Assembly (NCBI RefSeq): GCF_046546335.1
Contig: NZ_JBKGYA010000001.1
From: Thiohalospira sp.
GTDB taxonomy: Bacteria > Pseudomonadota > Gammaproteobacteria > Thiohalospirales > Thiohalospiraceae
Reading direction: 5' to 3' (one strand)
DNA length: 24,000 nucleotides
The notes beneath the pieces were generated by a model, which searched no databases, was not told where the DNA came from, and was given only the letters and a program-made list of their open reading frames with translations. The translations under genes and the position numbers were made by a program. Positions 10,917 through 19,266 of the stretch are shown here, one piece after another (positions within the stretch are counted from its first letter, which is position 1; every line of letters begins with the position of its first letter).

Positions 10917-10931
10917 GAGTCAAATTGACTC
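10917..10931. promoter_or_regulatory. Perfect palindrome GAGTCAA-a-TTGACTC (candidate operator)
   Basis: Two 7-bp arms around a single central base, in the divergent spacer between the SprA-related gene and the RND adaptor gene. Confidence 0.3.
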
Positions 10932-10956
10932 GCCCCCGAAGGCTGCCAACTGGACA

Positions 10957-10985
10957 TTGACCATACAGTCAGCCCGGCCAAGAAT
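10957..10985 (+). promoter_or_regulatory. Candidate sigma70 promoter of the RND efflux operon
   Basis: TTGACC (10957..10962), 17-nt spacer, AAGAAT (10980..10985). This would place the TSS about 20 nt before the 11011 ATG and its GGAGG SD. Confidence 0.3.
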
Positions 10986-11010
10986 GGGGGAAGTGCCACG
11001 GAGGTCCCCC

Positions 11011-12087
11011 ATGCCGCACCTGCCCCGCCGCCCCCTCATCATCGTCATGATCATCACCCTGGCCATCGCCTGGATCGCCTCCGGGGTACTGACCCGGCCG
11101 GAGCCCACCGACGACCAGGCCCGAGAGAGCGAAAAGATGACCGTGGGCGTGGCCGAGCGCCGGGCCGAGCCGGTGGAGGAGCTGCTCGTCCTCCAGGGAG
11201 AGGTGGAGCCGGACAGCCGCATGGTGGTCCGCGCCGAGACCGCGGGACAGCTCGCCGAGTGGGCCGTCTCCCGCGGTGCCCGGGTAGACGAGGGCGAGCT
11301 GCTGGCGCGGCTGAAGATGGACGACCGCCAGGCGAAGTTGCGCCAGGCCGAGGCGCGGGTGGCGGGGGCCGAGAGCGACTTCGAGGCCACCCGGACCATG
11401 GCCGAGGACGACTTCACCGCCGAGCTGCAGGTGGACGTCAAGCGCGCCGAGCTGGAGGCGGCCCGGGCGGAGCTGGAGGCGGTACGCCAGGATATCGAGA
11501 ACACCGAGCTGCGCGCCCCCATGGCGGGCATCGTCAACCGCCGCATCGCCGAGCGCGGCGACTTCCTCGCCGTGGGCGGCCAGCTGGCCGAGATCGTGGT
11601 CAATGACCCCCTCCTCGCCGTGGTCCGCGTCCCCCAGCACCGGATCCGCGAGGTGGAGCCGGGGCAGGAGGCGCGCATCCGCTTCCTGGACGGCTCCACC
11701 GCCACCGGTGAGGTCACCTTCGTCGCCCCGGTGGCCGATCCGGCCACCCGCACCTTCCGGCTGGAGGCGACCTTCCCCAATCCCGAGGGCGACCTCCCCT
11801 CCGGGATCAGCGCCGAGGTCATCATCCCGGTGGCGGAGACCGAGGCCCATCGCGTCTCCCCGGCGCTGCTCAACCTCGACGACGACGGCCGGCTGGGGCT
11901 CAAGGCGGTGGCCGACGGCGAGGTGGTCTTCCACGAGGTGGAGGTCATTCGCGCCGACCGCGACGGCGTCTGGGTCACCGGGGCACCCCCCGAGATCGAC
12001 CTCATCACCGTGGGCGGCGGTTTCGTCCGCCCGGGCGAGGCGGTGGCCACCGAGTCGGCCGCGGCGCCGGGCGAGGGCCGGCCGTGA
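11011..12087 (+). CDS. RND efflux periplasmic adaptor (membrane fusion protein)
   Basis: N-terminal TM anchor (RRPLIIVMIITLAIAWIASGVL), a coiled-coil hairpin (KLRQAEARVAGAESDFEATR...LEAARAELEAVRQDIENTELRAPMAGIV), and beta-barrel/MP domains. The ATG at 11011 follows GGAGG with a 5-nt spacer. The track ORF start at 10531 is an upstream read-through. Confidence 0.85.
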   Translation: MPHLPRRPLIIVMIITLAIAWIASGVLTRPEPTDDQARESEKMTVGVAERRAEPVEELLVLQGEVEPDSRMVVRAETAGQLAEWAVSRGARVDEGELLARLKMDDRQAKLRQAEARVAGAESDFEATRTMAEDDFTAELQVDVKRAELEAARAELEAVRQDIENTELRAPMAGIVNRRIAERGDFLAVGGQLAEIVVNDPLLAVVRVPQHRIREVEPGQEARIRFLDGSTATGEVTFVAPVADPATRTFRLEATFPNPEGDLPSGISAEVIIPVAETEAHRVSPALLNLDDDGRLGLKAVADGEVVFHEVEVIRADRDGVWVTGAPPEIDLITVGGGFVRPGEAVATESAAAPGEGRP

Positions 12088-15000
12088 GGGCGCTCATCGC
12101 CGCCGCGGTGGATCGCGGCCGCGCCGTCCTCCTGCTGCTCGGGATCCTGCTGATCCTCGGGGCGGTGGCCTACGCCACCATCCCCAAGGAGGCCAACCCC
12201 GAGATCGACGTCCCCATCTACTTCGTCACCGTCCCCTACCCCGGGATCACCTCCGAGGATGCCGAACGGCTGCTGCTGCGTCCCCTGGAGCGGGAGCTGC
12301 AGTCGGTGGAGGGGCTGGACGAGATGCGCGCCTGGGCCGGCGAGGGCTTCGCCATGCTGCGGCTGGACTTCGAGCCCGGCTGGGACAGCCGCCAGGCCCT
12401 GGCCGATGTCCGCGAGGAGGTGGACCAGACCGAGCCGGAGCTCCCCGAGGAGGCCGAGGAGCCCCGGGTGAACGAGGTGGACGTCTCGCTGTTCCCGGTG
12501 CTCACCGCCACCCTCTCCGGACCGGTGAGCGAGCGCTCGCTGCTGGAGACCGCCCGCGACCTGCGCGACCGGCTCGAGGCGAGCCCCGGCGTGCTGGAGG
12601 TGGACATCGGCGGCGAGCGCGAGGATGTCATGGAGATCCTGGTGGACCCGCTGGTCATGGAGTCCTACCGGATCTCCTACGCCGAACTCACCCGCGCCAT
12701 CCAGCGCAACAATCAACTCGTCACCGCCGGGGCGGTGGATACCGGGGCCGGCCGCATCGCCATCAAGGTCCCCGGCACCATCGAGGATACCGAGGCGGTG
12801 GAGAATACCGCCCTGCGCGCCGAGGACGGCACCGTGGTCCGCGTGGGGGATGTCGCCGAGGTCCGCCAGACCTACAAGGACCGGGACAGCTTCGCCCGCA
12901 TCGACGGCAACCCCGCGCTCTCCCTGGAGATCCGCAAGCGCACCGGGGCCAACATCCTGGAGGTGGTGGGCGAGGCGCGCCGCACCATCGAGAGCGCCCG
13001 GCAGTCGGGGCCCGAGGCGCTGGAGGTCCGCTACCTCCAGGACGGTGCCGAGGATGTCGCCGACTTCCTGGGCGACCTGGAGAACAACGTCATCACCGCC
13101 GTGCTGCTGGTGGTCCTGGTCATCGTCGCCGCCCTGGGGGTGCGCTCCTCGCTGCTGGTGGCGGTGGCCATCCCCGGCGCCTTCCTGGGCGGGATCCTGG
13201 TCATCCAGCTGCTGGGCTTCACCCTCAACCTGGTGGTCCTCTTCTCCCTCATCCTGGTGGTGGGGATGCTGGTGGACGGCGCCGTGGTGGTGGCGGAGCT
13301 GGCCGACCGCTACATCGCCGAGGGGCGGGCGCGAGCCGCCGCCTACCGCGACGCCGCCATCCGCATGGGCTGGCCGGTGACCGCCGCCATCGCCACCACC
13401 CTGGCAGTCTTCTTCCCCATGCTCTTCTGGCCGGGCATGGTGGGCGAGTTCATCATCTACCTGCCGGCGACGGTCATCATCACCCTGCTGCTCTCCCTGG
13501 CCATGGCGCTGGTCTTCGTCCCCGCCCTGGGGTCGTTCATCGGCCCGCGGCGGGCCACCAACCCGGAGCTGGTGCGCCAGATCCGGGCCGCCGAGACGGG
13601 CCGCTGGGCCGAGCTGGGACGGGCCACCCGCGCCTACACCGACGCCCTGGCCACCGCCTGCCGCCGACCCGGCCTCACCCTGCTCATCACCGCGGTCATC
13701 ACCGCCACCCTCTACGCCGGCTGGGCGGTCCACGGCAAGGGGACCTCCTTCTTCCCCGACATCGAGCCGCGCTTCGCCCAGATCCAGGTCCAGGCCCGCG
13801 GCGACCTCTCGGTCCGGGAGGCGGACGACCTGGTCCGCCGCGTGGAGGAACGCATCGGCGGGACCGACGGCGTAAAGACCCGCTACGCCCGGACCATCGC
13901 CTCCCAGCAGCGCCGCCTGGAGGGCGACTTCGCCGAGGATGTCATCGGCATCGTCCAGCTGGAGCTCACCGACTGGCGCACCCGGCGCCCGGCCGCGGAG
14001 GTCCTGGCCGAGCTCCGCCAGCGCACCGCCGACCTCCCCGGCCTGAAGATCCAGGTGCGGGAGCAGGAGCGCGGCCCCACCGCCGGCAAACCGGTGGCGG
14101 TGGAGGTCCGCGGAGAGCGCGGGGCATCGCTGGACACCGGCGTGGAGCGCGTCCGCGCGGCCATGGAGGAGCTGGGCGGCTTCGTGGACGTGGAGGACGA
14201 CCGGCCGCCGCCGGGGGTGGAGGTGGAGCTGCGGGTGGACCGCGAGGAGGCGGCCCGTCACGGCGTGGATATCGCCCTGCTGGGCCAGGGACTGCAGACG
14301 CTCACCGACGGCGTCCTGCTGGGTACCTACCACCCCGACTTCAGCGACGAGGCGGTGGACATCCGCATGCGGCTGCCGGCGGACGCCCGCCACCTCCAGC
14401 AGCTGGCTACCCTGAACCTGCCCACCGAGCAGGGGCTGGTGCCGCTGCGCAACTTCGCCACCCTGGAGCCGGTGGAGGCCACGGGCCTCATCAAGCGCCG
14501 GGACGCCCGCCGCGCCCACACCGTGGAGGCCGACGTCGCCGCCGACGAGCTGGCGGAGGAGCGCACCAGCGCCCTCCGGCAGGCCCTGACCGGCGCCGAC
14601 CTACCCGAGGGGGTCAGCGTCGCCTTCCGCGGCGAGAGCGAGGACATGGCCGAATCCAGCCAGTTCCTGGTCCGCGCCTTCCTCTTCGCCCTGGCGCTGA
14701 TGGTCGTGATCCTGGTGGTCCAGTTCAATCGCTTCACCCAGGCGGCGCTGGTCCTCTCGGCCATCCTCTTCTCCACCGCCGGGGTGCTGGCCGGGCTGCT
14801 ACTCCGCGGCGAACCCTTCGGAGTCGTCATGAGCGGCATCGGCACCCTCGCCCTGGCCGGCATCGTGGTGAACAACAACATCGTCCTCATCGACACCTAC
14901 AACGTCCTGCGCCGCGACGACGGCCTGGACCCCGTGGAGGCGGCCCTGCGCACCGGCGCCCAGCGCGCCCGGCCGGTGATCCTCACCGCCGTCACCACCA

Positions 15001-15209
15001 TCCTCGGCCTGTCGCCCATGGTCCTGGGCTGGACCATCGACTTCATCGGCCGGGACTTCTACATCGGCGCCCCCTCCACCCAGTACTGGATCCAGCTGGC
15101 CACGGCCATCAGCGGCGGCCTGCTGGTGGCCACGCCGCTGACCCTCTTCTTCACCCCGGCGATGCTGGTCTGGCTGGACCGACGCGCCACCACCCCGACC
15201 ACCGAGTGA
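12084..15209 (+). CDS. RND (AcrB/AcrD/AcrF-type) efflux permease
   Basis: 1041 aa with the 12-TM, two-large-periplasmic-loop layout. N-terminus is AVDRGRAVLLLLGILLILGAVAYATIPKEANPEIDVP. Its GTG overlaps the adaptor stop (GTGA). Confidence 0.93.
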   Translation: MRALIAAAVDRGRAVLLLLGILLILGAVAYATIPKEANPEIDVPIYFVTVPYPGITSEDAERLLLRPLERELQSVEGLDEMRAWAGEGFAMLRLDFEPGWDSRQALADVREEVDQTEPELPEEAEEPRVNEVDVSLFPVLTATLSGPVSERSLLETARDLRDRLEASPGVLEVDIGGEREDVMEILVDPLVMESYRISYAELTRAIQRNNQLVTAGAVDTGAGRIAIKVPGTIEDTEAVENTALRAEDGTVVRVGDVAEVRQTYKDRDSFARIDGNPALSLEIRKRTGANILEVVGEARRTIESARQSGPEALEVRYLQDGAEDVADFLGDLENNVITAVLLVVLVIVAALGVRSSLLVAVAIPGAFLGGILVIQLLGFTLNLVVLFSLILVVGMLVDGAVVVAELADRYIAEGRARAAAYRDAAIRMGWPVTAAIATTLAVFFPMLFWPGMVGEFIIYLPATVIITLLLSLAMALVFVPALGSFIGPRRATNPELVRQIRAAETGRWAELGRATRAYTDALATACRRPGLTLLITAVITATLYAGWAVHGKGTSFFPDIEPRFAQIQVQARGDLSVREADDLVRRVEERIGGTDGVKTRYARTIASQQRRLEGDFAEDVIGIVQLELTDWRTRRPAAEVLAELRQRTADLPGLKIQVREQERGPTAGKPVAVEVRGERGASLDTGVERVRAAMEELGGFVDVEDDRPPPGVEVELRVDREEAARHGVDIALLGQGLQTLTDGVLLGTYHPDFSDEAVDIRMRLPADARHLQQLATLNLPTEQGLVPLRNFATLEPVEATGLIKRRDARRAHTVEADVAADELAEERTSALRQALTGADLPEGVSVAFRGESEDMAESSQFLVRAFLFALALMVVILVVQFNRFTQAALVLSAILFSTAGVLAGLLLRGEPFGVVMSGIGTLALAGIVVNNNIVLIDTYNVLRRDDGLDPVEAALRTGAQRARPVILTAVTTILGLSPMVLGWTIDFIGRDFYIGAPSTQYWIQLATAISGGLLVATPLTLFFTPAMLVWLDRRATTPTTE

Positions 15210-15215
15210 AGCCCC

Positions 15216-15590
15216 ATGGAATTCTTCGCCACCGTCGACCGCCCCCTCACCGCCGAGGAGCTCACCCGGCATCTCACCGTGGGCACCCTCCCCGACTGGT
15301 GCGACGCCTTCGCCGAGGTCACCGCCGACAGTGAGGACGAGGGCGCCGGCGACACCCTCTGGGGCCACTTCCGGGTGGTCCGCACCCCCATCCGCGGCGG
15401 CGTCCGCTTCGCCCTCACCGACTGCCCCAACGCCCTGGCCTGGACGGTCACCGCCGGCTACCCCCCGGCCCCGGAGGGCGTCGTCATCCACGCCACCATC
15501 GCCCGCACCGAGGCCGATACCGACCCCGACTTCGCCGAATCCATCCAGGAGTTCGTCGAGGCCTGGCAACGCGGCCTGCAGGGCGGCTGA
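15216..15590 (+). CDS. Hypothetical acidic protein (124 aa), family unknown
   Basis: Starts 6 nt after the RND permease stop. GC3-rich codon usage like its neighbours. I recognise no motif. Confidence 0.6.
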   Translation: MEFFATVDRPLTAEELTRHLTVGTLPDWCDAFAEVTADSEDEGAGDTLWGHFRVVRTPIRGGVRFALTDCPNALAWTVTAGYPPAPEGVVIHATIARTEADTDPDFAESIQEFVEAWQRGLQGG

Positions 15591-15609
15591 CCGGATCGAC
15601 CCGACCGGG

Positions 15610-15629
15610 TTGCACAATCTTTGTATAAT
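15610..15629 (+). promoter_or_regulatory. Distal TGyAyAA direct-repeat pair containing a TATAAT hexamer (candidate pyp promoter/operator)
   Basis: TTGCACAA (15610..15617) tct TTGTATAA (15621..15628), 11-bp register. TATAAT lies at 15624..15629. The segment is AT-rich in a GC-rich genome. Confidence 0.4.
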
Positions 15630-15653
15630 TTCTAATCTTCATGGCAGGGCCAG

Positions 15654-15694
15654 ATAGGGCAGTTCCGATACAGCCCTATTACAAACCCGATACA
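15654..15694 (+). repeat. Inverted repeat ATAGGGC-N12-GCCCTAT plus direct repeat CCGATACA x2 in the pyp leader
   Basis: ATAGGGC 15654..15660 pairs with GCCCTAT 15673..15679. CCGATACA occurs at 15665..15672 and 15687..15694, 22 bp apart. Confidence 0.5.
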
Positions 15695-15736
15695 AGCCCC
15701 GCTGGCGAGCCGCAGAGCCGGCACCGCGGGAGACGC

Positions 15737-15754
15737 TGTACAACCCCTGCACAA
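15737..15754 (+). promoter_or_regulatory. Proximal TGyAyAA direct-repeat pair abutting the pyp SD
   Basis: TGTACAA (15737..15743) cccc TGCACAA (15748..15754), 11-bp register, ending 2 nt before the GGAGAG SD of pyp. Confidence 0.4.
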
Positions 15755-15768
15755 TGGAGAGACCAACC

Positions 15769-16146
15769 ATGGAATTCGTCCAGTTCGGCACCGACGACAT
15801 CGACAACACCCTGGCCAAGATGAAGGACGGGGACCTGAACAACCTCGCCTTCGGTGCCATCCAGCTCGACGCCGACGGCAACATCCTCCAGTACAACGCC
15901 GCCGAGGGCGACATCACCGGCCGCGACCCCAAGGCCGTCATCGGCAAGAACTTCTTCAAGGATGTCGCCCCCTGCACCGACTCCCAGGAGTTCTCCGGCC
16001 GCTTCAAGGAGGGCGTCAAGAACGGCGACCTCAACGCCATGTTCGAGTACACCTTCGACTACCAGATGCAGCCCACCAAGGTGAAGGTCCACATGAAGAA
16101 GGCGCTCACCGGCGATTCCTACTGGATCCTGGTCAAGCGCGCGTAG
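15769..16146 (+). CDS. pyp: Photoactive yellow protein (PAS-fold blue-light photoreceptor)
   Basis: 125 aa from the ATG at 15769, with SD GGAGAG 7 nt upstream. [18 protein letters not shown]...[46 protein letters not shown]...[35 protein letters not shown] is roughly four-fifths identical by eye to the Halorhodospira halophila PYP sequence as I remember it. Tyr42, Glu46, Thr50, Arg52, the chromophore Cys69 and Met100 are all present, and the length is the same. Confidence 0.95.
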
Positions 16147-16155
16147 GACCCCTTC

Positions 16156-16176
16156 CGGCGGGGCGAGCCCCCGCCG
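16156..16176 (+). other. GC-rich intercistronic hairpin between pyp and pcl
   Basis: CGGCGGGG (16156..16163), loop cgagc, CCCCGCCG (16169..16176): an 8-bp perfect stem. No T-tract follows, and the pcl SD GGAG comes shortly after. Confidence 0.45.
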
Positions 16177-16194
16177 TCCACCCGGAGAACGAAC

Positions 16195-17376
16195 ATGCAA
16201 CTCGATGCAGATACCCTCCTGCCCGCCGTCATCTCCCTGGTTCGGGACGAACTGCGGCGACTGCGCGGCGATGCCGGAGCGGCCGTCGACGCCACGACCT
16301 GGGAGGCCTCCACCACGCTGGGCGGCGAGGCCATCGGCGCCGACTCCATCGAGCGACTGACCCTCGCCACGGCCGTGGCGGAACGCTTCGGCCTCCACGA
16401 ACTCGACGCCGGCGACTACCTCCTGCGCCGGCACAGCCTGGGCGAATGGGCCGGGATCGCGGCCGAGGGGATCCGGCAGGCGGCGGGCATGACCTTCCGC
16501 TCCTCCGGCACTACCGGGGAGCCGACACCGCACCGCCACCCCCTGGCCGACCTGGAGCAGGAGGTCTCCCACCTCGCCCGTCTCTTCCCCGGAACGCGGC
16601 GGGTAATCAGCCTGGCCCCCGCCCACCACATCTACGGCTTCCTCTTCGGAGTCCTGCTGCCCCAGGAGCTGGGCTGCCCGATCCGCCACGACCGCAGCCG
16701 CTCCGGCCTGCCGCCGGCGGACCTGGACCGCGGCGACCTGGTCGTCGGCTTCCCCCTGCGCTGGCGCCAGCTCGCCACCCTCTACCCGGCCTTCCCGCCG
16801 GGGGTCACCGGTGTCACCTCCACCGCGCCCTGCCCGCCGGCCCTGGCCCGGGAGCTGGCGCAGCGGGGGCTGGAGCGGCTCGTCGCCATCTACGGCGCCA
16901 CCGAGACCGCCGGCATCGGCTACCGCGAGGGTCCGGACGAGCCCTTCCGCCTCTTCGACCACTGGGAGTCGGACGGCTGCTACCTCTATCGCCGGCGCCG
17001 CGACGGGATCGGCGAGGCGGTGACGCCGCCGGACCACCTGGAGTTCCGCGACAGCCGCCACTTCATCCCCGCCGGGCGGCGGGACGGGGCGGTCCAGGTC
17101 GCCGGGGTGAACGTCCACCCCGAGCAGGTGGCGGAGAAGCTGCGCCACCGGCCGGGCGTCGCCGAGGCGGCCGTCCACCTCGACCGCAGCGAGGAGCCGC
17201 GGCTCGCCGGCTGGGTCGTGCCGGAATCCGGTACCGATCCGGAGGCACTCAAGGCCGAGCTGCACACCTGGATCCGCGAGCATCTGACCCCGCCGGAGCG
17301 GCCGATCTCGCTCACGCTGGCCGAGGAAATCCCGCGGGGCCCCCTGGGCAAGCCGGCCGTGGGCCTCTCGGCATGA
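16195..17376 (+). CDS. pcl: 4-hydroxycinnamate (p-coumarate)-CoA ligase of the PYP-activation family
   Basis: 393 aa with adenylate-forming core motifs FRSSGTTGEPT, YGATETAG, GRRDGAVQVAGVNV and a C-terminal PRGPLGKP. The compact size and the position directly downstream of pyp match the known pyp-pcl arrangement. Confidence 0.85.
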   Translation: MQLDADTLLPAVISLVRDELRRLRGDAGAAVDATTWEASTTLGGEAIGADSIERLTLATAVAERFGLHELDAGDYLLRRHSLGEWAGIAAEGIRQAAGMTFRSSGTTGEPTPHRHPLADLEQEVSHLARLFPGTRRVISLAPAHHIYGFLFGVLLPQELGCPIRHDRSRSGLPPADLDRGDLVVGFPLRWRQLATLYPAFPPGVTGVTSTAPCPPALARELAQRGLERLVAIYGATETAGIGYREGPDEPFRLFDHWESDGCYLYRRRRDGIGEAVTPPDHLEFRDSRHFIPAGRRDGAVQVAGVNVHPEQVAEKLRHRPGVAEAAVHLDRSEEPRLAGWVVPESGTDPEALKAELHTWIREHLTPPERPISLTLAEEIPRGPLGKPAVGLSA

Positions 17377-17750
17377 GCGTCCTCCTGGACGGGCGGCGAC
17401 CGAGCATTGCCGAGGTCGAGGCCCTGGCCGACCGGGGCTGGGCGCCCTGGGAGCCGGCCGCCAAGGATGGCCTGGCCCTGGTCAACGGCACCGCCGCCAT
17501 GACCGGCATCGCCGCGCTGAATGCCGCCGGCGCGCGCCGGGAGGCGTGGCGGCCGGAGCTGGGGGAGCTGCGCCCCCATCCGGGACAGCAGGCCACCCAC
17601 GCCCGGCTCAACGAGCTGGCCACCGGCAGCCGGCGGCTGGTGGCGGCGGGACCGGCCTTCCTCCCCGACGACCGCCCCCTGCAGCCGGCCATGGCCGCCC
17701 TCACGGCACGGCTGCGAGACCCCGCCGACCCGCTGCACCACCTGCCGTGA
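17373..17750 (+). pseudogene. tal: Severely truncated tyrosine/histidine ammonia-lyase (TAL/HAL family) relic, 125 codons, lacking the MIO-forming core
   Basis: The ATG overlaps the pcl stop (ATGA). AKDGLALVNGTAAMTGIAAL matches the HAL/TAL motif (K/R)(E/D)GLAL(L/V)NGT. ELRPHPGQ matches the TAL RPHPGQ motif (HAL has RGxxGQ). The N-terminal VLLDGRRPSIAEVEALA and C-terminal DDRPLQPAMAALTARL resemble the family termini. No Ala-Ser-Gly (GxSGDL) segment is present, and the length is about a quarter of the ~500 aa expected. Confidence 0.6.
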
Positions 17751-17852
17751 TCCGGCGCCCCCCCCGGCGCCGACTCAAGTTTTCCCCGCCGCCGCCGCTA
17801 TCGATACGACGGCTCGTCCCCGGCAGGCGGGCGCCGGCCGACGCCGGGAAGG

Positions 17853-17861
17853 TGCTATAAT
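17853..17861 (+). promoter_or_regulatory. Extended -10 promoter element TGcTATAAT
   Basis: A perfect TGnTATAAT at 17853..17861, about 80 nt upstream of the small membrane ORF and yheU. No -35, as is tolerated by extended -10 promoters. Confidence 0.4.
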
Positions 17862-17943
17862 CCGGGGCGGCAAAGGCGGGCCGGTGGCAAGGGAGTGGCC
17901 GGGGCCCGGATCGGCGAAATCCATTCCGGAACGGGGGGGGAAC

Positions 17944-18099
17944 ATGCTGCTTGCCGTGGCCATCATCATCAGTCTGGCGCTGCTGGTACTGCTGTTCATC
18001 CATGTGGCGAGCCTGCTGGGATGGCCGCTGCGCCAGCGCATCGTGGAGCGCCACGAGCGCCAGCGCCAGCAGTACTACAGCCGCCAGCCCTGGGAGTAG
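17944..18099 (+). CDS. Small single-pass membrane protein (51 aa), hypothetical
   Basis: MLLAVAIIISLALLVLLFIHVASLLGW, then a basic tail RQRIVERHERQRQQYYSRQPWE. A G-rich SD precedes the ATG and the codons are GC3-rich. A GTG-start yheU-like gene begins 2 nt after its stop. Confidence 0.45.
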   Translation: MLLAVAIIISLALLVLLFIHVASLLGWPLRQRIVERHERQRQQYYSRQPWE

Positions 18100-18101
18100 G
18101 G

Positions 18102-18338
18102 GTGCCCGTACGCGTTCCGCCCGGGAGCCTGGAGCCGGCCACCCTGGAGGCCGTCCTGGAGGAGATCGTCACCCGGGACAGTACCGATTACGGCGAGACC
18201 CCGGTCTCCGTCGACAGTCGCCGGGAGCAGCTCCGGCGCCGCCTGGACCGCGGCGAGGCGGCCCTGGTCTTCGACGAGGAGAGCGCGACCCTCGACGTCG
18301 TTCCGGCCGAACACGCACCCCGAGAGCCGACGGAGTGA
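18102..18338 (+). CDS. yheU: YheU (UPF0270) family protein
   Basis: GTG start. VPVRVPPGSLEPATLEAVLEEIVTRDSTDYGE...REQLRRRLDRGEAALVFDEESATLDVVP follows the E. coli YheU pattern (IPWQ.[22 protein letters not shown]...VKRQL..GEAVLVW). Confidence 0.7.
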   Translation: MPVRVPPGSLEPATLEAVLEEIVTRDSTDYGETPVSVDSRREQLRRRLDRGEAALVFDEESATLDVVPAEHAPREPTE

Positions 18339-18411
18339 GAACTCCGTCACGGAAACGAGAGGCTGGATACCCCACAATGGACCTGCTTTTATTCAACCTA
18401 GGTAGTCGCTC

Positions 18412-19266
18412 ATGGGCGCGCTCAGCATCGAAGAACTGATCCGTCAGAGCCCGCGGCTGGGCTCCCTCCCGGACATCGTGGGGGAACTCAACGCCGCGGC
18501 CGACGACCCCCAGAGCTCGGTAGCCGACCTGGCCGGCATCATCCGCCGCGACCCCGCCCTCTCCGCCCGCCTGCTGGCCATCGTCAACAGCCCCTGGTAC
18601 GGCCTGCGCGGGGAGGTAGCCGACATCGAGCGCGCCGTCTCCCTGGCCGGCACCCAGCAGCTGCGCTTCCTCGCCCTGTCCACCGTCATCGTCCGGCAGT
18701 TCACCAACCTGCCCAATGCCCTGGTGACCATGGACACCTTCTGGAAGCACAGCTTCACCTGCGCCGTGGCGGCCCGCGCCCTGGCCGAGAGTGCCGGCGA
18801 GCGCGATCGGGAGCGCTACTTCCTGGGCGGCCTGCTCCACGACATCGGCAGCCTGCTCATCTACACCACCCTGCCGAGCCTGGCCAAGGAGGCGATCCTC
18901 CACGCCCGCTCGCAGAACCAGCCCATCTACCAGGCCGAGCAGCTCATCTTTGGCTTCGACCACGCCGAGGCGGGCGGGGCGCTGCTGCGCCACTGGGGTC
19001 TGCCGGAGAGCCTCGCCGCCACCGTGGAGGGCCACCACGAGCTGGGCGACACCGGCCACTTCGGCCGCGAGAAGGCGCTGGTCCACCTGGCCAACGGCAT
19101 CGCCAACGCCATCCACCCGAGCAACACCCTCTTCCGCCAGCCGCTGAACTCCGATCCGGCGGCCTGGGGGCTGGCCGGGCTGGATACCGACCAGCTCGAC
19201 GCCACCCTCGCCGCCATGGACGAGCGGGTGGCCGAGGCCATGGGCGTCTTCTACTTCGCCGCCTGA
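18412..19266 (+). CDS. HDOD domain signalling protein
   Basis: 284 aa with LPDIVGELNAAADDPQSSVADLAGIIRRDPALSARLLAIVNSPWYGL, AVSLAGTQQL, GGLLHDIGSLLIY and GFDHAEAGGALLRHWGLPE, the typical HDOD signature. Confidence 0.9.
   Translation: MGALSIEELIRQSPRLGSLPDIVGELNAAADDPQSSVADLAGIIRRDPALSARLLAIVNSPWYGLRGEVADIERAVSLAGTQQLRFLALSTVIVRQFTNLPNALVTMDTFWKHSFTCAVAARALAESAGERDRERYFLGGLLHDIGSLLIYTTLPSLAKEAILHARSQNQPIYQAEQLIFGFDHAEAGGALLRHWGLPESLAATVEGHHELGDTGHFGREKALVHLANGIANAIHPSNTLFRQPLNSDPAAWGLAGLDTDQLDATLAAMDERVAEAMGVFYFAA

Follow-up and report, generated by a model that had tools for sequence, protein, structure and literature searches.

In Halorhodospira halophila, a pyp-pcl-tal operon has been linked to biosynthesis of the chromophore of photoactive yellow protein (PYP) (Kyndt et al. 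2002/2003, as cited in PMC12826048). In published surveys, 5% of 113 pyp operons contained a tyrosine ammonia-lyase (TAL) gene, or at least 10% of pyp genes had one no more than five genes away, and other lyases or p-coumarate uptake were proposed where an operon TAL is lacking (PMC12826048; PMC9664959). The source of the chromophore is regarded as unsettled where TAL lies outside the pyp operon, with a gene elsewhere or uptake being suggested (PMC12826048). Here, we describe a pyp-pcl locus of Thiohalospira sp. (contig NZ_JBKGYA010000001.1 of assembly GCF_046546335.1), of which a stretch of 24,000 nucleotides, referred to below as the window, was analysed. The pcl gene, which encodes p-coumarate:CoA ligase (pCL), is followed by a 125-codon open reading frame (ORF) that is very probably a recent, non-functional tal pseudogene, left from the gene that closed an ancestral pyp-pcl-tal operon. 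The gene order pyp, pcl, tal on one strand is that of H. halophila and pyp and pcl are intact, whereas tal is reduced to 125 codons and every catalytic element is gone. The three genes are positioned as follows.

15769..16146, + strand: pyp, photoactive yellow protein, 125 residues counted from MEFVQFG (Pfam PAS, E=8e-15)
16195..17376, + strand: pcl, p-coumarate:CoA ligase, 393 residues (Pfam AMP-binding and AMP-binding_C)
17373..17750, + strand: tal relic, 125 codons, with ATG at 17373 and TGA at 17748-17750

The relic was compared with the Pfam families, with solved structures and with 80 PYP loci fetched from reference genomes. It matches Lyase_aromatic (PF00221) with E=6.8e-15 and 55 bits (cut-off 27.3). 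It is also recovered, with an overall E=3.8e-27, by a profile derived from 35 full-length operon TALs, which places residues 4-95 on positions 165-274 (E=8e-23); residues 96-120 fall weakly (conditional E=0.0017) and collinearly on positions 492-516, where the near-invariant D497, R498 and L500 of the DRPL motif are kept. The closest of the fetched loci (L001 and L002) encode full-length TALs of 528 and 530 residues directly after pcl and thus have the full three-gene operon of H. halophila, with the same pcl/tal start-stop overlap as the window. Relic residues 16-99 align with residues 173-276 of the L002 TAL with 70 of 84 positions identical and a single 20-residue gap. The identity of the relic N-terminus was settled by a 2-kb contig from a congener (L086; ERZ10759744), the nucleotide sequence of which is 88% identical to the window over a stretch that starts at the end of pyp, spans pcl and takes in the first ∼29 relic codons. 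Among solved structures, the best match is the Rhodobacter sphaeroides TAL (2o6y; E=2.7e-10), in which relic residues 17-56 correspond to chain residues 180-219, residues 57-90 to ∼240-273 and, weakly, residues 94-114 to 493-515. The initial annotation had described an in-order, one-frame TAL mosaic of 125 codons that overlaps pcl at ATGA and contains no frameshift or stop, and had allowed for the similarity to HAL and TAL proving insignificant; the description is borne out, with the TAL frame open throughout, and the similarity is significant.

The relic is a four-piece mosaic in a single frame, with borders at residues 1-20, 16-56, 57-100 and 101-125. The four segments are those initially proposed, with borders that had been placed a few residues off. 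Three deletions separate them.

17373..17432, + strand: segment A, TAL N-terminus, codons 1-20; the DNA alignment with L086 runs from pcl through 17460
17418-17432: junction of deletion 1 (microhomology GAGGCCCTGGCCGAC), 156 codons lost, taking out the MIO segment
17418..17540, + strand: segment B, TAL 172-212 (EALADRGW...GLALVNGTAAMTGIAALNAAGARR), codons 16-56, matching R. sphaeroides TAL 180-219
17540 to 17541: junction of deletion 2, 20 codons lost, short similarity (CGC...TGG) on either side
17541..17673, + strand: segment C, TAL 233-277 (EAWRPELGELRPHPGQQ...AFLPDD), codons 57-100
17673 to 17674: junction of deletion 3, ∼218 codons lost
17674..17750, + strand: segment D, TAL C-terminal DRPL helix (RPLQPAMAALTARL...) and stop, codons 101-125, profile positions 492-516

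Deletion 1 removes what are codons 17-172 in L086, including GTVGASGDLTPLAH, and an internal stretch of that contig (1853-1975) resumes the alignment at window position 17417. Segment B is 93.5% identical in nucleotide sequence to L086 and 85% identical to L002. The junction of deletion 1 coincides with an imperfect direct repeat, GAGGCCnTnGCCG, which is found at both L086 sites and encodes E-A-x-A each time. The left side of deletion 3 is defined by an allele from the same population (L082), which equals the window up to 17673 and then goes on as TAL (LDGVGEAAEVPQDPYTLRCAPQ...); the right side maps to G-D-R-P-L of L001 and L002. The repeats at the junctions measure ∼6-13 nt, and three junctions suffice to explain the collinearity of the relic with TAL. 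Residues 13-15 (AEV) were considered as a fourth fragment, from TAL ∼161-163, and this origin was ruled out because the L086 N-terminus reads IAEVEAVAD.

We propose that, once this lineage had separated from the congener, ∼394 of ∼520 codons were lost in three deletions between short and imperfect direct repeats, presumably through replication slippage or microhomology-mediated recombination. The catalytic Tyr loop and the Ala-Ser-Gly that forms MIO went with deletions 1 and 2; deletion 3 took most of the helical core along with the Tyr/Arg motif for substrate binding. What is left is about one quarter of the length of 2o6y, or 125 residues compared with 510-547 at the 35 loci where the whole tal gene could be delimited. 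Ala-Ser-Gly, the N-terminal Tyr loop (YGVTTGYG) and the Tyr/Arg motif (QDPYxxRC/QDxYxxRCxPQ) are all absent, and only 14 of the 92 columns that are conserved in at least 34 of the 35 operon TALs are spanned, the other 78 having been removed. Because the Tyr loop, Ala-Ser-Gly and QDxYxxRC are lost, the product cannot act as an ammonia-lyase, as had been argued initially from the missing Ala-Ser-Gly and helical core.

The deletions can be followed through related alleles. The 90% protein cluster of the relic has five members, the contigs of which are 98.4-99.5% identical to the window. The 125-codon form is present in the window allele (shared with L085) and in L081, L083 and L084, with the polymorphisms E14K, R56L, T75A and P98A. 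In L082 (encoding protein P0003; flanks 99.3% identical) deletions 1 and 2 are present and deletion 3 is absent: after ...AFLPDD the protein reads LDGVGEAAEVPQDPYTLRCAPQLFG...GGNFYGQHV... to the end of the contig, and its substitutions E321A and L356Q fall on near-invariant positions of the 35 TALs. Deletions 1 and 2 are thus common to all six population copies, while deletion 3 is still polymorphic within one species-level population, and the lesions vary between close relatives. The tal gene of L086 starts with VSLLLDGRRPTIAEVEAVADG and has a normal N-terminal half (... YGVTTGYG ... GTVGASGDLTPLAH ... GEALAVRGWEPWEPAAKDGLALVNGT), in which GTVGASGD is retained. Together, these alleles form a decay series from an intact N-terminal half (L086 lineage) through deletions 1 and 2 (L082) to all three deletions (window). 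Near its other end, the L086 tal ORF (L086:1341-2018) departs from TAL at about codon 219, within the segment removed by deletion 2 and a few residues past the ARR where that deletion begins, and stops with TAG at codon 226, after ...GARRAVELAQRDRKSVV, 2 nt short of the contig end; either an error at the end of the contig or a separate lesion may explain this.

Outside the population (flanks at least 98.4% identical in nucleotide sequence), homologous-protein searches and a metagenome scan found no 125-residue orthologue, the conserved form that the initial annotation had also envisaged. The protein searches yielded the same-population cluster, P0021 and distant PF00221 fragments; when P0003 and P0021 served as queries, and in the metagenome scan, nothing was closer than 59% besides P0021, P0001 and a 37-residue fragment at 68% (L145). 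The metagenome scan with P0003, which looked for a complete allele with deletions 1 and 2 or for the right break-point of deletion 3, gave nothing above 52% identity apart from the L145 fragment. The homologous-protein searches listed only PF00221 proteins of less than ∼400 residues, whereas the fetched loci do include full-length TALs, so that absent full-length matches are uninformative.

An independent tal relic follows intact pyp and pcl genes in an Ectothiorhodospiraceae metagenome-assembled genome (MAG; L010:5199-5955). Here, codons 1-25 are in the start frame, and TAL 189-319 and 444-539 follow in another frame, owing to one out-of-frame and one in-frame deletion with break-points unlike those of the window. 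The sister locus (L009) encodes a TAL of 541 residues, and the L010 relic is annotated at NCBI as a 226-residue 'aromatic amino acid lyase' (P0018). Among the 80 pyp loci, 42 have tal adjoining pcl, 31 have pcl and no tal within 10 kb, and L010 is the one relic. The loci without tal (e.g. Idiomarina and many Halomonas/Vreelandella) bear no tal trace and represent the end state towards which the window locus is heading, whereas in the window the loss has been caught midway. The polymorphic deletion 3, the population-restricted short form, the intact tal genes of relatives and the frame-broken L010 relic all support the decaying tal that was one of two readings offered at the outset.

Bacterial pseudogenes decay under a deletional bias, with deletions arising between short direct repeats. 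The window conforms to this pattern in its several internal deletions at imperfect microhomology, in their stepwise and polymorphic state and in the parallel loss elsewhere, and differs from it in that the relic has so far acquired no frameshift or stop. The finding is of an ordinary kind, though it provides a tidy example of pseudogene decay.

The genes upstream of the relic show normal constraint. The PYP of the window is 87% identical to that of L001, and its chromophore-site residues, including DVAPCTD, were found by direct reading; a second open ATG lies upstream of the assigned pyp start, at 15754. The length of pcl is equal in L081, L082, L085 and L086, and its ratio of non-synonymous to synonymous divergence (dN/dS) is 0.255 between the window and L086, compared with 0.24 between L001 and L002. 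Within the population, the corresponding polymorphism ratio (pN/pS) is 0.20 for pyp, 0.27 for pcl and 0.07 for a neighbouring RND pump gene. Since pcl evolves at the usual rate, the photoreceptor system does not look abandoned. A six-frame profile scan of the 24-kb window detected no second lyase besides the relic. With tal very probably dead and pyp and pcl under constraint, the locus predicts that the organism either takes up external p-coumarate or makes it with a substitute lyase encoded at another site in the genome. The loss of tal beside constrained pyp and pcl in two separate halophilic lineages bears on how the chromophore is supplied.

Selection on the relic itself was assessed from polymorphism and divergence. 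Within the population it shows seven non-synonymous and six synonymous changes, and its pN/pS of 0.46 is the highest of 13 genes in the neighbourhood. Relative to L082, pN is 0.023 for the relic, compared with 0.003 for the pooled neighbours (pS 0.015). Across pN/pS, an MK-type table and a binomial test, the direction fits relaxed selection without reaching statistical significance, and several observations weigh against a pseudogene. With 13 changes, relic polymorphism cannot be told apart statistically from neutrality (binomial p=0.21) or from that of the neighbours (Fisher p=0.22); relative to L086, the retained segments have a low dN/dS of 0.15; none of the 14 retained conserved positions is altered in the 125-codon alleles, and all five of these keep an open ORF. 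In favour of a pseudogene, an AlphaFold2 (AF2) prediction gave the relic no confident fold (mean pLDDT of 49, pTM of 0.25), although the low confidence is weak evidence because a single sequence was the input; the relic does not allow a deep alignment. Very recent deletions would also account for the open ORF with its unchanged conserved positions and for the low dN/dS, the latter being expected where most of the divergence from L086 predates them.

The intact frame and start can be accounted for without selection on the relic. Exact direct repeats of 7-10 nt were tallied in three full-length tal genes (those of L001, L002 and L009) with a GC content at third codon positions, GC3, of 0.84-0.92, and 71-86% of them share a codon phase. 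From this bias, the chance that three of three deletions are in frame is roughly 0.4-0.6, and the in-frame state is therefore not evidence of selection. The frame would have survived because matching short repeats are mostly equal in codon phase at a GC3 of 84-92%. Stop codons are rare in any frame here, and on each strand long ORFs, several in all, run across the relic; Pfam gave no family match for these antisense and overlapping ORFs. The pcl/tal overlap is ATGA in L002 and L010 and GTGA in L086. In the window, the TGA stop of pcl sits within the ATGA (17373-17376) that starts the relic, and by comparison of the loci this overlap is ancestral. The tal start would have survived through this overlap, deletions into pcl being selected against. 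The initial annotation had taken the start overlap, the intact frame and the lack of stops as hints of retention; with an ancestral ATGA, 71-86% of repeats in phase and ∼70% GC, none of the three requires selection on the relic. More generally, in GC-rich genomes an in-frame remnant with no stop says little in favour of function. As a cause of the open frame, an overlapping gene or RNA was considered and rejected, as there was no promoter or terminator, Rfam or antisense Pfam match.

In L001, L002 and L010, the tal start is preceded at a distance of 6-9 nt by a Shine-Dalgarno-like GGGAG, which is lacking in the window (17360-17372) and in L086, where the start is GTG. Translation of tal in the window/L086 lineage may therefore rely on coupling alone. 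The relic is perhaps still translated by coupling to pcl, and its product, devoid of lyase activity, is probably functionless.

The best surviving alternative is that the remnant is kept as a small non-catalytic protein that is translated by coupling to pcl and acts, for example, with pCL or PYP. We consider this very unlikely. Its case rests on three in-frame deletions, a coupled start and an ORF that is open in five alleles, whereas the in-frame outcome is what codon-phase bias leads one to expect and the GGGAG of L001, L002 and L010 is missing in the window. The dN/dS of 0.15 and the 14 of 14 unchanged conserved positions would fit a retained protein, but conservation is confined to one population (at least 98.4% identity), within which the 125-residue form is not fixed, deletion 3 being polymorphic, and near-identical alleles differ by seven amino-acid polymorphisms per 125 residues. 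The window and L010 relics both retain the LALVNGT...RPHPGQQ stretch, but in L010 the frame of the relic differs from that of its start. The fold predicted by AF2 from the single sequence is not confident, and, judged from HAL, PAL and TAL structures in general, the retained pieces would be core helices of a ∼500-residue tetramer subunit, which also counts against an independent small protein. In a more specific and slightly more doubtful version, the skeleton is a selected micro-protein, composed of an N-terminal tag, the LALVNGT/RPHPGQQ helices and the DRPL helix, that might bind pCL or apo-PYP or sequester p-coumarate. If true, it would be an enzyme-to-adaptor conversion seen at birth, and the central helices shared with the L010 relic would be more than coincidence.

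It is very unlikely that the DNA rather than the protein is kept, as the 3' end of the operon (pcl termination context, spacer or stabiliser of the mRNA 3' end). The first 4 nt are surely constrained by the pcl stop, but ∼650 bp proved dispensable in deletion 3. The block from the relic to a downstream HDOD gene is identical or nearly so in four copies, compared with a 2.3% difference in pcl, but recent recombination or a sweep explains this low diversity equally well. A scan of 15100-18500 for terminator-like or promoter-like sites was negative, as was the Rfam search around the relic. A sequencing or assembly error that collapsed a full-length tal, another possibility raised by the initial annotation, has a negligible probability: the junctions do fall at short repeats, but these (∼6-13 nt) are far below read length, and the junctions recur in five further assemblies, namely four NCBI MAGs and the Logan assembly of SRR19844287, with all three present in three of the four MAGs and in SRR19844287 and only junctions 1 and 2 in the L082 MAG; L081, L083, L084 and L085, which share the structure, come from different assemblies and pipelines.

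The pseudogene reading has a consequence for annotation. Since the relic contains no frameshift or stop, automatic annotation calls it a gene, and the exact protein is named 'aromatic amino acid lyase [Thiohalospira sp.]' at NCBI (WP_411063796.1). This RefSeq label is misleading, and metabolic reconstructions that include the ORF would wrongly credit these genomes with TAL and p-coumarate synthesis.

The remaining features near the operon are as follows.

15216-15590, + strand: ORF of 124 codons without a family match (Pfam blank), between the RND pump gene and pyp
17943-18098: hydrophobic, membrane-like ORF of 51 codons (MLLAVAIIISLALLVLLFIHV...), downstream of the relic
downstream of the 51-codon ORF: UPF0270 gene (within 17943-18338), then the HDOD gene

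The ORF at 15216-15590 shows no non-synonymous and two synonymous changes in the population and is called as 139 residues in L082. Many amino-acid polymorphisms were seen in the UPF0270 gene (ten non-synonymous and ten synonymous changes). Two spurious ORFs of 1199 and 1243 residues (10920-15334) lie across the genuine RND transporter gene (12084-15209), in other frames and on the opposite strand; such long spurious ORFs are typical at ∼70% GC and call for caution with any open-frame argument in the window. Divergence along the locus (16195-19266) is mosaic: pcl differs from L081/L085 by 26-27 nt (2.2-2.3%), while the relic, the downstream intergenic region and the HDOD gene differ by 0-1 nt, which suggests recent recombination or a sweep across the block from the relic to the HDOD gene.

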